The notes: generated by a model not told the origin, from the letters alone. A DNA stretch of 33,883 nucleotides from Candidatus Nealsonbacteria bacterium RBG_13_42_11 (GCA_001821455.1 MHLY01000003.1:10994-44876), one strand, 5' to 3'. Positions 14,566 through 23,649 are shown, counted from the stretch's first letter. Numbers and translations: made by a program.

Positions 14566-15597
14566 ATGTTTTCTTTAATTAATAAAAAACAAGGGGTAGT
14601 TTTATTCGCAATAGTGTTTATATTTGCTGGAATTTTTCTTTTTACAAATACGGTGAAAAGCCAAGACGAAAACGATGAAGAAGATACTAATAAATGCTTG
14701 GACTGGTCGTCATATTTTTCGAGCTCAGATTCCAGGTTGTCCAAAGAGGGTATCCAAAAATGTAAAGATAATTTTAGCGGAGTGGGACGCACTTATTCTT
14801 GGGAAATCGTAGAAGAAAGGGATTATTGCTACGACGTGGCAAACGGTGAAAGTTATTGCTGTCCGCTTTCGCCTTCTTGTTGTCCTGAGTGCATCATTCC
14901 TACGCCACCTGCACCCTCCCCGCCCCCCACACCAACCCCTCCACCAACAACATTAATAAAACCAACTATTATTTATCCTAAAGAAAATGCCCAGGTTTAT
15001 GCCGGTGAAATTGAACTTAAATGGAGCAATACCGGGGCAGCTTTTTATAAATATCACGTTGAAACCGGCGGTGAAATTAAAGAAGAAAAAACAATTGGTT
15101 ATTACGGTTCTAAAACAATTAATGATTTGGTGCCCGGGAATTATTCCTGGGCGGTTTGTTCCTGCAATGATACAACAGGTGAAAACTGTAATTGCAGCGA
15201 TTTAACAACGTTTCAGGTAGTTTTTGCACCAGCTGGCTTTTTCGGCGGTATAGTTCCCTGTGGCCGGAAATACGATGATCCAAACACGCCGCCACCTCAA
15301 AACGAAAGCGTGCCTTGTGAATATAAGCATGTTTTTTTACTCCTTAAAAATATACTTGATTTTATTTTATGGCAATTGGGATTAATTGTTTTGGTTTTAT
15401 TAATTTTAGCTGTTGGTGTAATTTATTATTTCTCAATGGGTGCCCCAAGCACGATGGTAGGAGTAAAATCAATTCTAAAATCAGCTGGGATCGGTTACGG
15501 AATCATGTTTTTGGCCTGGCTATTTATTAATCTGATTTTATCCCTTCTCGGCTACCAAATCAGCATTTTTGGCCGCTGGTGGCAAATACCTTTTTAA
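14566..15597 (+). CDS. Pilin-domain fusion protein: signal/TM, Cys-rich module, Pro-rich linker, Ig/Fn3-like module, C-terminal VirB2-like pilin domain
   Basis: 343 aa. The linker is PTPPAPSPPPTPTPPPT. The C-terminal domain GGIVPCGRKYDD...VPCEYKHVFLLLKNILDFILW plus two TM helices and the ending GRWWQIPF parallels the pilin at 7529..8011. Confidence 0.6.
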   Translation: MFSLINKKQGVVLFAIVFIFAGIFLFTNTVKSQDENDEEDTNKCLDWSSYFSSSDSRLSKEGIQKCKDNFSGVGRTYSWEIVEERDYCYDVANGESYCCPLSPSCCPECIIPTPPAPSPPPTPTPPPTTLIKPTIIYPKENAQVYAGEIELKWSNTGAAFYKYHVETGGEIKEEKTIGYYGSKTINDLVPGNYSWAVCSCNDTTGENCNCSDLTTFQVVFAPAGFFGGIVPCGRKYDDPNTPPPQNESVPCEYKHVFLLLKNILDFILWQLGLIVLVLLILAVGVIYYFSMGAPSTMVGVKSILKSAGIGYGIMFLAWLFINLILSLLGYQISIFGRWWQIPF

Positions 15598-15599
15598 AA

Positions 15600-15615
15600 T
15601 TTGTGGTATAATAAA
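15600..15615 (+). promoter_or_regulatory. Extended -10 promoter element TTTGTGGTATAATAAA upstream of the VirB6-like gene
   Basis: TGgTATAAT (hexamer 15607..15612) lies 18 nt upstream of the ATG at 15631. An identical 16-mer recurs at 22113..22128. Confidence 0.5.
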
Positions 15616-15630
15616 ACAACGTTCAATTAA

Positions 15631-22111: not shown

Positions 22112-22112
22112 T

Positions 22113-22128
22113 TTTGTGGTATAATAAA
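22113..22128 (+). promoter_or_regulatory. Extended -10 promoter element TTTGTGGTATAATAAA upstream of the Cys-rich pilin-fusion gene
   Basis: TGgTATAAT (hexamer 22120..22125) lies 12 nt upstream of the ATG at 22138. The 16-mer is identical to 15600..15615. Confidence 0.5.
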
Positions 22129-22137
22129 TAAAATTCT

Positions 22138-23649
22138 ATGAAAAAATTATTGCTTTTATTGTCTGTAATAATCTTTATTAGTTTTGTTTTTCCAGGGATT
22201 GCAGACGCTGCCGTGCTTAATCCCGGCGCTTCTTGTGCATCTGGAGATCAATGCTGTGAAGTATGTAAAGACTGGGCATCCGCCGCCCTAAGTCGAGGAT
22301 TCCCCGTTTATTACCAATGTAAAATGGGCATGAGTATTGATATGTGCTATGGAGACTGTGGGCCTAAATTATTTCAAAAATGGTATCTTCCAGGAGATTA
22401 CGGATGTGGTCCGTTTGGAGATTGCGCCTGCTTTGTTTGTCAGTGTAATAATATGTGTTGTGGCACCGGGGAAACCTGTGCTAATCCATACAGTACCTGT
22501 AAGGTTCCTGCGTGTAAAAATCAGGGTGACCCGTGTGCCAATAATAGCGAGTGCTGTAATAACACTTGTATAGACGGCTTTTGTTGTGATTCGGTTTGCT
22601 CCGACATATGTAAATATTGTGACGATGCAGAAGGGTTTGGTGCTTGCATAAATGTTCCAAACGGTATGGACCCCGATAATGAGTGCCCCGGGACATCTGG
22701 TAACGGTGATTTCTGTAATGGAGCGGGAGCCTGCCAAACGCAAGCTTCTTGCAAGGCGCTAGGTGCTTCTTGTAGTCTTACAAACTCAAATCTGTTTTGC
22801 TGTACTGGATATGGTTGTTTAAATGGAATTTGTACTCAGATTTGTAATAATGATGAGCATTGTGATACAGGTGCAGGAGAAACTAACGCGAATTGTCCTA
22901 ATGACTGTCGTCCAGGTGGAGGAACGGGTGGCGGCGTTATTCTTTATATTGCTGCTAATTACGAGGGGCCACTAACGGTTGGGAGCGAAACAGAAGCACA
23001 CGTGTTTACATCAAACGTCTCTAATCTAAATGATTTCCTCTTGATTTTAGAGGGATTTCCTTCGGCAGACACCTGGAACGACGAAGTTTCATCAATGAAA
23101 ATATCTCCGGGTTATAATGTTAAATTATGCAAAGCCGCTAATTACGGAGAGTGTCTATCCCAAATCTTCACAACCGATGTTGCTAACTTTGTGGATATTG
23201 ATTTTAACGACACTCTTTCATCGGTAGAAATAACTTATGGTGGGGCGGGTTGCGGCGATACGATTTGTAGCCCGCCACAAGAAAATGCTAATAATTGCCC
23301 AGCGGATTGCGGTGGTTCTGTTCCGGGTTCTCAGCCGATGCCTAAAGGACATCTTAATTTAACTTATCCGTCATTTTTAAACCTTGATTTAAATATGCCG
23401 TTAAATCAGCTTATTGCCCAGCTTTATTATTTTATAATAGCAATTTCCGGCTTGGCCGTATTTGTAATGCTGGTTTGGGGCGGTTTTGAATATTTAACTT
23501 CAACCGGAAACCCGTCAAAAATCGGCAATGCAAAAGAAAGAATAACCTCAGCGCTTCTGGGTTTATTGATTATTTTAGCTTCTTATCTTATTTTACAGGT
23601 AATTAACCCCGATTTATTAACGCTTACTTTACCACAAATCCAACATTAG
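22138..23649 (+). CDS. Secreted Cys-rich modular protein: knottin/hevein-like Cys modules, beta/gamma-crystallin-like domain, C-terminal VirB2/TrbC-like pilin domain
   Basis: 503 aa with signal peptide MKKLLLLLSVIIFISFVFPGIADA. Cys patterns are CKNQGDPCANNSECCNNTCIDGFC and CKALGASCSLTNSNLFCCTGYGCLNGIC. Two motifs CNNDEHCDTGAGETNANCPNDC and CGDTICSPPQENANNCPADCG bracket a Greek-key-like segment (ILYIAANYEGP...NDEVSSMKISPGYNVKLCKAANYGE...FNDTLSSVEI). The C-terminus has two TM helices around WGGFEYLTSTGNPSKIGNAKERITSALLGLLIILASY. Confidence 0.6.
   Translation: MKKLLLLLSVIIFISFVFPGIADAAVLNPGASCASGDQCCEVCKDWASAALSRGFPVYYQCKMGMSIDMCYGDCGPKLFQKWYLPGDYGCGPFGDCACFVCQCNNMCCGTGETCANPYSTCKVPACKNQGDPCANNSECCNNTCIDGFCCDSVCSDICKYCDDAEGFGACINVPNGMDPDNECPGTSGNGDFCNGAGACQTQASCKALGASCSLTNSNLFCCTGYGCLNGICTQICNNDEHCDTGAGETNANCPNDCRPGGGTGGGVILYIAANYEGPLTVGSETEAHVFTSNVSNLNDFLLILEGFPSADTWNDEVSSMKISPGYNVKLCKAANYGECLSQIFTTDVANFVDIDFNDTLSSVEITYGGAGCGDTICSPPQENANNCPADCGGSVPGSQPMPKGHLNLTYPSFLNLDLNMPLNQLIAQLYYFIIAISGLAVFVMLVWGGFEYLTSTGNPSKIGNAKERITSALLGLLIILASYLILQVINPDLLTLTLPQIQH

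Follow-up and report, generated by a model that had tools for sequence, protein, structure and literature searches.

A survey of 3,035 Patescibacteria genomes found VirB4, the ATPase of type IV secretion systems (T4SSs), in 2,417 of them and showed that these proteins fall mostly in one monophyletic clade nested in MPF-FATA (Quiñonero-Coronel 2025, Microb Genom; PMC12102498). TrsD was the most abundant associated component, PrgI/VirB3 and VirB6 were also detected, and VirB2-like pilins found with the profile PF18895 formed 441 arrays of 2–11 divergent genes. Almost no relaxases were encountered, and homologues of the type IV coupling protein (T4CP) were seldom near virB4. In Paceibacteria and Microgenomatia virB4 lies near dnaA, dnaN, rnpA, ksgA and rpmH, for which a gene-dosage effect has been proposed (PMC12102498). 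In Southlakia epibionticum, transposon sequencing has shown that epibiotic growth requires the homologous T4SS together with its pilin genes, and the absence of a relaxase and a coupling protein was remarked on there as well (Wang 2023, Cell; PMC10633639). A 2025 FEMS review restates the points of both papers and speculates on a pilus conduit. T4SS-pilin proteins rank among the unknown genes with the highest expression in Paceibacterales co-cultures (Kuroda 2024; PMC10936435), and according to a 2026 preprint, tubular structures that may be T4SS pili extend from a Minisyncoccota parasite toward its host and apparently penetrate the host envelope. Here we describe a gene cluster at positions 14566–23649 of a 33,883-nt stretch of DNA from the bacterium Candidatus Nealsonbacteria RBG_13_42_11 (Paceibacteria; GCA_001821455.1; genome 494 kb); the whole stretch is called the window below. 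Our results indicate that this cluster is, very probably, a chromosomal T4SS of the Patescibacteria type, derived from monoderm MPF-FATA conjugation machinery and no longer conjugative.

All proteins of the window were scanned against Pfam and NCBIfam profiles, "above cutoff" meaning the curated cutoff of the family. The open reading frames (ORFs) listed in a first-pass annotation, which was made from the sequence without database searches, proved to be in place, but its count of eight co-oriented genes and one inverted gene has to be corrected to seven and one (eight in total). Every gap between them is 57 bp or less, so the cluster does not hide a missing gene. The VirB4 ATPase (20321–22111, plus strand, 596 amino acids) matches the CD1110 model NF045971 with 377 bits against a cutoff of 325, over model positions 181–734 of 752, and its Walker A (AKAGSGKS) and Walker B (ILVIDE) motifs are intact. 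It does not have the N-terminal ~180 residues of canonical VirB4. The VirB4 N-terminal domain is found as a gene of its own, a TrsD-like gene (19695–20324, plus strand, 209 amino acids) that overlaps virB4 by 4 nt. TrsD matches positions 102–233 of the VirB4_plasma model (E 2.2e-11) and positions 7–171 of CD1110 (E 1.1e-4), its top match being the N-terminus of the Mycoplasma VirB4 model of NCBIfam; the two ORFs thus tile CD1110 from 7 to 171 and from 181 to 734. A profile of TrsD compared with PDB did not match the N-terminal domain of TrwK, and the assignment rests on the NCBIfam VirB4 models. The first-pass annotation had read the two ORFs as one VirB4. The VirB4 identity stands, while the idea of a single gene does not: TrsD and VirB4 are distinct genes. 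More specifically, a frameshifted or decayed virB4 was considered and rejected, since in 76 of 76 related loci a stop codon closes the TrsD ORF ahead of VirB4, regardless of the frames of the two. TrsD is also among the most conserved proteins of the locus (mean column identity 64%). The two-ORF VirB4 is therefore a conserved arrangement of two genes, with TrsD separate beside virB4, and not a broken gene.

Directly before TrsD lies a PrgI/VirB3-like gene (19282–19695, plus strand, 137 amino acids; PF12666, E 6e-8, 33.6 bits against a cutoff of 27), the stop codon of which overlaps the TrsD start; its product has two segments resembling transmembrane (TM) helices, at residues 24–42 and 45–63. 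The second membrane component is an extended VirB6-like protein (15631–18285, plus strand, 884 amino acids). According to a TM scan, its N-terminal ~410 residues hold a signal or TM segment and about 8 TM helices. The C-terminal 474 residues make up a hydrophilic, strongly charged tail that differs between relatives, whose orthologues are 580–1240 amino acids long. Taken alone, the protein matches TrbL/VirB6 weakly, below the Pfam cutoff (E 0.0042), and 5 of 30 orthologues match TrbL at E<=0.01, the best at 1.2e-5. A profile built from the membrane domains of the 30 orthologues has R388 TrwI (VirB6; 7o3v) as its best hit in the PDB sequence set, with E 1.9e-4. PrgI/VirB3 and VirB6 membrane components are thus both present near virB4, the homology of VirB6 being remote. 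The VirB6/TrbL-like call made from the sequence receives the same remote support, and the earlier pilin, PrgI and VirB4 calls agree with profile matches to PF18895, PF12666 and NF045971, respectively. These profile searches, which had been proposed as a check on the first-pass annotation, place the ATPase in VirB4 and the small proteins in the pilin and PrgI families.

A scan for VirB4 with one genome per species returned at least 591 relatives; we compared the best 80 loci, with VirB4 60–81% identical, by tblastn of the window proteins, many of these loci being cut by contig ends. The records carry candidate phyla radiation (CPR) labels, apart from unlabelled or evidently mislabelled records of metagenome-assembled genomes, and the labels of the best 80 include Nealsonbacteria, Staskawiczbacteria, Wildermuthbacteria, Paceibacterota and similar. 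One gene order recurs: DksA, LysM-M23 (reverse), RsmA, [pilin], VirB6, unk149, PrgI, TrsD, VirB4, followed by [0–4 pilin-domain genes], Jag/YidC/(YidD)/RnpA (reverse), DnaA, DnaN and a penicillin-binding protein (PBP; reverse). TrsD was present in 76 of the 80 loci, PrgI in 70, Jag in 62, DnaA in 59, a pilinC-type gene in 58, unk149 in 48 and VirB6 in 45. The sole variable stretch is that between VirB4 and jag, which ranges from 12 bp to 7.2 kb across 62 loci and contains pilin-domain ORFs in 30; the other 34 ORFs of at least 120 amino acids in this stretch of the 62 loci have no match to a mobility family (relaxase, T4CP or integrase). Recurrence of the order in related species indicates that the locus is fixed in the chromosome and vertically inherited. 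This bears out the earlier proposal of a fixed chromosomal apparatus between rsmA and the jag-yidC-rnpA-rpmH/dnaA genes, and the suggested synteny check returned relatives with pilin genes and without relaxase, T4CP or integrase families.

Regarding details of the synteny, the closest relative, L001 (7848–11817; VirB4 81% identical), has RsmA-PrgI-TrsD-VirB4-Jag only, and VirB6, unk149 and the pilin gene are absent there. In eight loci (L030, L035, L039, L047, L069, L070, L074 and L075) a PBP gene takes the upstream place of VirB6, and in L030 VirB6 lies downstream of dnaN on the opposite strand. These arrangements show that modules have been shuffled around the dnaA region.

The ancestry of VirB4, PrgI and TrsD in monoderm conjugation systems could also mean that the cluster is what is left of an integrative and conjugative element (ICE) or plasmid that landed by dnaA. 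The nearest solved structure to VirB4 is the C-terminal domain of Thermoanaerobacter VirB4 (4ag5, E 2.3e-46), TrwK following at 2.6e-5, and among 72,556 plasmids the best matches all come from Firmicutes or Actinobacteria; together with the CD1110 cutoff this shows the monoderm (MPF-FATA) affinity of the ATPase. There are 4987 plasmid VirB4 matches, 3632 of them on conjugative plasmids, but all are distant relatives, 29–34% identical at best, while the same housekeeping neighbours accompany a VirB4 that is 60–81% identical in dozens of species-level genomes. No ORF of the window belongs to a relaxase, T4CP, VirB11, VirB8/9/10 or integrase family, which agrees with the reading made from the sequence, as does the absence of flanking att-like repeats: what direct and inverted repeats there are around it are short chance matches of low identity. 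In the window we did not find a relaxase with T4CP, an integrase or transposase or att repeats, which would mark a conjugative T4SS or ICE, and the flanks are conserved across species instead of showing a patchy distribution. The GC content of the cluster (0.37–0.44) equals that of its surroundings, and the core genes are intact and translationally coupled. Synteny effectively excludes a decayed element of this kind, and we regard it as extremely improbable.

Three proteins of the window match T4SS_pilin (PF18895) above its 26.6-bit cutoff. PilinA (7529–8011, plus strand, 160 amino acids, E 7.8e-8) is VirB2-like; its sequence shows a signal peptide, the Cys motif GIVPCG and a pair of hydrophobic helices. 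The gene is located 6.5 kb from the main cluster, between tRNA-Arg(TCG) at 7452–7524 and tRNA-Lys(CTT) at 8055–8128. The start at 7529 chosen in the first-pass annotation is right, as a mechanically called TTG ORF from 7448 would overlap the tRNA-Arg gene. The other two carry large ectodomains before the pilin domain. PilinB (14566–15597, plus strand, 343 amino acids) consists of a signal peptide, a Cys-rich segment, a Pro/Thr linker, an immunoglobulin (Ig)/PKD-like domain (weak PKD match at residues 118–222, E 0.036) and a C-terminal T4SS-pilin domain (residues 259–324, E 1.3e-6); it has TM-like segments at 9–27, 271–289 and 309–327 and 14 Cys. PilinC (22138–23649, plus strand, 503 amino acids) has a signal peptide, a disulfide-rich ectodomain, a beta/gamma-crystallin-like domain and a C-terminal T4SS-pilin domain (residues 422–489, E 3.6e-11). 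Among its 46 Cys are three modules of the pattern C-C-CC-C-C, resembling inhibitor cystine knots, at 90–121, 126–150 and 205–232. Residues 307–369 match the beta/gamma-crystallin-like chain 3hzb weakly (E 0.039), and a Crystall domain is present in 2 related pilin fusions. The pilin domains of pilinA and pilinB form one subfamily, with 36% identity and common GIVPCG and WWQ motifs; a different subfamily comprises pilinC and the short bare pilins of the loci L065 (139 amino acids) and L073 (119 amino acids). The alignment shows a conserved TS-G-N-P...K..AK loop between the two hydrophobic helices, and according to the alignment and a hydrophobicity scan the proteins have the VirB2/TrbC layout of a signal peptide and two hydrophobic helices joined by a short polar/basic loop.

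Decoration of the pilin domain is the rule among relatives. A hidden Markov model iterated on the ORFs of the loci detected 107 pilin-domain ORFs in 47 loci, the window included, with a median of 445 amino acids; 93 have at least 300, and the longest has 1520. Their extensions carry beta/gamma-crystallin, InlB B-repeat, SpaA-like, Ig, fn3 and lamin-tail (LTD) domains, that is, adhesin-type modules. Most relatives have the pilin domain at the N-terminus and the extension after it, and pilinB and pilinC have the reverse order; both orders are compatible with a hairpin that has two outward-facing ends. A small mature subunit (below ~130 amino acids) is what pilinA would give from its 160-residue precursor, while pilinB, pilinC and 93 of the 107 related ORFs are too large. 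PilinA is a candidate for the major pilin, and a short major pilin combined with decorated minor or tip pilins is a plausible design judging from these sequences.

The size of most subunits also allows a different explanation, in which there is no filament: the pilin domain would be a two-helix anchor for surface adhesins, and VirB4, VirB6 and PrgI a separate translocon that exports effectors into the host or inserts and handles the anchors. Subunits of up to 1520 residues are awkward for helical packing, their extensions are of the adhesin type, and Gram-positive T4SSs are normally devoid of pili (PMC12102498; 2025 FEMS review). However, short bare pilins do exist (pilinA and those of L065 and L073), and with them a major pilin plus decorated minor pilins is possible. 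Tubular structures have been seen at the Minisyncoccota-host interface (2026 preprint). Moreover, a coupling protein is as a rule required for the export of effectors, and the neighbourhood does not encode one. We consider a system of anchored adhesins without a filament unlikely.

If the cluster is a Patescibacteria-type T4SS, its parts could work as follows, judging from the families they belong to. The VirB6-like protein would form the membrane channel, and PrgI/VirB3 together with the split VirB4 (TrsD as the N-terminal domain, VirB4 as the ATPase) a membrane-docked motor. This motor would extract VirB2-like pilin domains from the membrane and polymerise them. The ends of the pilin hairpin would point outward, so that the ectodomains, N-terminal here and C-terminal in most relatives, would be exposed as host-binding modules, either on the filament or on the surface of the cell. 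By comparison with the homologous Southlakia epibionticum system, the organelle would touch the host cell and be needed for epibiotic or parasitic growth.

Several points weigh against this interpretation. The assignment of VirB6 is remote (E about 1e-4), and neither a VirB8-like nor a VirB1-like component was identified in the window. The window covers 34 kb of a 494-kb genome and a T4CP or relaxase could be encoded elsewhere; VirD4-like genes are far from virB4 in most genomes (PMC12102498). Ectodomains of 200–1400 amino acids on every subunit would be hard to pack in a VirB2-type helical filament, and the pilin fusions may be minor or tip subunits or may not polymerise.

As for the VirB8-like component, a bitopic protein with an NTF2-like domain (PrgL/TraM) was not found in the window. 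The sole nearby bitopic candidate is unk347 (11035–12078, 347 amino acids), which lies between pnp and a dksA-like gene, in an operon with both. It consists of an acidic helix at the N-terminus, a single TM segment, a linker rich in Thr and a confidently modelled C-terminal domain of the alpha/beta type. We rejected it as the missing VirB8: the C-terminal domain was modelled (predicted local distance difference test, pLDDT, 79) and has no significant fold match in PDB, and none to VirB8. Relatives of unk347 are sometimes fused to Amidase_2 or GH3 (glycoside hydrolase 3) domains, so it looks like a cell-wall protein. A membrane-anchored protein with LysM (2.7e-21) and Peptidase_M23 (1e-16) domains is encoded at 12526–13674 on the minus strand, and in 22 related loci this gene is found together with rsmA on the upstream side of the T4SS. 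VirB1-like matches with LysM/M23 domains have been associated with virB4 in Paceibacteria (PMC12102498). By this analogy the protein is only a candidate for the cell-wall hydrolase (a VirB1 analogue); alternatively, it is a syntenic housekeeping gene.

Between VirB6 and PrgI lies unk149 (18830–19279, plus strand, 149 amino acids), a soluble protein without a TM segment or a family match, as had been noted from the sequence. Its gene ends 2 nt before that of PrgI and is found at the same position in 48 of the 80 loci. There are 108 homologues, each of about 140–170 amino acids and with no Pfam domain. AlphaFold2, given an alignment of 31 sequences, predicts a six-helix domain at residues 7–108 (pLDDT about 90) with a disordered linker after it; the fold is all-helical and thus not that of VirB8. 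The alignment contains an invariant C-terminal D-x-Y-(R)-E motif. We found no match for unk149 in Pfam or NCBIfam, none among PDB sequences by profile, and a best E of 0.68 with Foldseek against PDB, and so reject the idea that it is a T4SS component already known. Since it keeps its place and is coupled to PrgI, it may be an accessory subunit in the cytoplasm that is specific to the clade.

A more far-reaching reading can be put forward tentatively, and we hold it possible though rather doubtful. The virB4-jag stretch and the slot before virB6 would be a hypervariable cassette of pilin fusions, in which knottin-like, beta/gamma-crystallin, Ig/PKD, InlB-repeat and LTD ectodomains, carried on a filament of short pilins, set host specificity. 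In the same reading unk149, with its invariant C-terminal motif, would be a new subunit of the VirB3/TrsD/VirB4 motor, cytoplasmic and specific to the clade, and the pilin would have been present already in the monoderm ancestor rather than borrowed from diderms. The last point is suggested by the link of the pilin domain to a pilin-like family of Mycoplasma ICEs: pilinC hits the NCBIfam family Mbov_0395, as do 16 of 42 related proteins with a pilin domain, the best with E 8.7e-10, below the curated cutoff.

CPR bacteria do not synthesise nucleotides. A DNA-uptake machine like archaeal Ced or Helicobacter ComB, which would provide a cell that makes no nucleotides of its own with these or with genes, is therefore another possible role for the cluster. 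VirB4 does match the DNA-import ATPases CedB and CedD, and in the class ABY1 the T4SS adjoins comF, recG and radA (PMC12102498). The matches are far below threshold, though, with 46 bits against a cutoff of 700 for CedB and 27 against 600 for CedD, and there are no competence genes in the window. In Southlakia, competence needs comEC, and deletion of comEC is non-lethal while the T4SS is essential (2025 FEMS review). Import of DNA as the function of the cluster is thus quite unlikely.

The genes of the cluster are tightly packed. The gaps in unk149-PrgI-TrsD-VirB4 are 2, −1 and −4 nt, and these four genes form a translationally coupled core operon that is followed by a pilin-domain gene. A hairpin at 18292–18320 (12-bp stem with 8 GC pairs, T-runs; unstranded) lies between the convergent stops of VirB6 and the inverted gene, and a consensus scan scored it as the top terminator-like site in 12400–24200. 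It is likely a bidirectional terminator that divides the cluster into two transcription units. The same type of scan gave divergent promoter-like sites at 18754–18829. Two units, pilinB-VirB6 and unk149-PrgI-TrsD-VirB4-pilinC, are predicted from the consensus scans only.

The inverted gene (18343–18777, minus strand) is located between VirB6 and unk149 and encodes a helical protein of 144 amino acids. Its codon-position signature is coding-like, and the consensus scan places a perfect sigma-70-like promoter, TTGACA-16-TATAAT (12/12), at 18825–18798 on the minus strand. There is no homologue in any of the 80 related loci, and a search of 1.84 billion representative proteins gave a single full-length relative (47% identity); larger proteins matched by it yield just low-complexity Pfam noise. 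Rex-like matches are far below cutoffs, and a role as a regulator or conserved component was rejected. The gene is a lineage-specific orphan insert and not a conserved T4SS component.

The remaining substantial ORFs of the window are all housekeeping genes by the Pfam and NCBIfam scans. Upstream of the cluster there are NusA, a PlsY-FakA-DegV fusion, DegV, a methyltransferase, the CCA-adding enzyme, S15, an NYN RNase, polynucleotide phosphorylase (PNPase), the DksA-like protein, the LysM-M23 peptidase and RsmA; downstream follow Jag, YidC, YidD, RnpA, L34, DnaA and DnaN and, further on, a class A PBP, tyrosyl-tRNA synthetase, RuvC, YebC and a lamin-tail-domain protein. One flank is thus formed by rsmA (13714–14544) and the other by rpmH (25412–25546) along with jag, yidC, yidD, rnpA, dnaA and dnaN. 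Both the annotation of the window and the synteny of the 80 loci show the chromosomal site near dnaA, dnaN, rnpA, ksgA and rpmH that is typical for Paceibacteria. A scan with Rfam returned four tRNAs only, and no structured RNA in the cluster.

It is important to note that the description of the locus as origin-adjacent holds only in part: the cluster is near dnaA (at 25697), but a cluster of DnaA boxes was not found within the window. The box TTATCCACA, with at most 1 mismatch, has 7 matches in the window against 7.08 expected, none of them near dnaA, and the spacers are short, with about 150 bp from rpmH to dnaA and about 130 bp from dnaA to dnaN. The sign of GC skew and gene orientation changes near 7.4 kb, at a strand switch at 7376–7529, and not at dnaA. 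With the skew switch elsewhere and no DnaA-box cluster, the term rests on dnaA alone. The T4SS genes are read toward dnaA, which would be head-on to replication if oriC is at rpmH/dnaA.

Some neighbours deserve mention in their own right. The NYN-domain RNase and PNPase (8413–11034) lie 3.5–6 kb upstream of the T4SS, and PNPase has an equivalent upstream position in the 4 related loci that reach that far (L010, L046, L056 and L064). Minisyncoccota have been proposed to feed on host RNA via PNPase, PNPase and VirB4 both being ancient in the phylum (2026 preprint). An 860-residue fusion of PlsY (glycerol 3-phosphate acyltransferase), FakA-like Dak2 and middle domains and DegV/FakB is encoded at 1537–4119 on the minus strand, and would be a route from scavenged fatty acid to lysophosphatidic acid in one polypeptide; a second, stand-alone DegV follows at 4320–5210 (minus strand). 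The LTD protein at the edge of the window (33170–33820, minus strand) shares its domain with the extension of a pilin-domain fusion in one related locus.

The core of the first-pass annotation is supported, namely a minimal T4SS-like pilus locus with counterparts of VirB2, 3, 4 and 6 and without genes for conjugation or mobility, fixed near dnaA and probably devoted to interaction with a host in an organism of small genome. The annotation had also implied that the locus is novel. This is not the case: the system, its missing relaxase, the pilin arrays and the position near dnaA are all described in PMC12102498. The locus belongs to a kind already published in 2023–2025 (Wang 2023; Quiñonero-Coronel 2025; 2025 FEMS review), and the genome itself is listed as VirB4-positive in Table S1 of the survey (GCA_001821455.1; 494,071 bp, 459 coding sequences; PMC12102498). 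What is new is confined to the ectodomain-fused pilins as a rule of the group, the unk149 family and the link to the Mycoplasma pilin-like family, and the category of the system is unchanged. T4SSs of Patescibacteria are among the few machines known to be essential for epibiotic life in a huge, mostly uncultivated radiation. Re-analysis shows that a tool-free reading of such a locus was accurate and brings no new kind of object. The under-described details could guide structural work and cryo-electron tomography in cultivable Paceibacteria. The link to the Mbov_0395 family is relevant to a question left open in PMC12102498, namely if a pilin was part of the Patescibacteria T4SS as early as its monoderm ancestor.

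Comparison with known systems sets the cluster apart from some and close to others. With the MPF-T VirB/Trw systems of diderms it has in common the two-helix hairpin pilin and a remote TrwI/VirB6 homology. Its divergent pilin paralogues recall the VirB2 arrays of Bartonella and Anaplasma, which suggests host-range or antigenic variation. Unlike MPF-T systems, the window does not contain VirB5, 7, 8, 9, 10 or 11, its VirB4 is far nearer to monoderm types, and the cell is monoderm. The minimal T4SS of Mycoplasma ICEs (Mbov_0395 pilin-like/CDS15, the eight-TM VirB6-like CDS16, and VirB4 Mbov_0397/CDS17) is a similarly stripped-down membrane set without VirB1 or VirB8. None of the profile matches to it reaches its NCBIfam cutoff (28 bits where 40 are required, and 272 where 590 are). 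In contrast to the window cluster, Mycoplasma ICEs have a VirD4 homologue, are mobile and transfer DNA, and they have no large ectodomain fusions of the pilin. Among the MPF-FATA systems CTn2 (CD1110 VirB4), pCF10 (PrgI, PrgH, PrgJ) and pGO1 (TrsD) the likeness is stronger: VirB4 and PrgI pass the family cutoffs, the TrsD piece is separate from VirB4 as in pGO1, and there are no outer-membrane components. Unlike them, the cluster does not have a relaxase, T4CP, a VirB8-like protein (PrgL/TraM) or a hydrolase of the PrgK/TrsG type. It does have VirB2-like pilins, which Gram-positive systems are said to lack, and it is chromosomal and vertically inherited.

From the Patescibacteria-clade T4SS (PMC12102498; prototype Southlakia epibionticum ML1 SEML1_0006-0019) nothing categorical differs. 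Southlakia has peptidase and lysozyme genes downstream of virB4, while the window has just the divergent LysM-M23 gene upstream of rsmA. Two features appear to go beyond what PMC12102498 spells out, namely the ectodomain fusions on most pilin domains and the 149-residue helical protein before PrgI. Neither system has a relaxase or coupling protein nearby, and both share VirB4, a separate TrsD, PrgI/VirB3, VirB6 and multiple divergent VirB2-like pilins of the PF18895 family.

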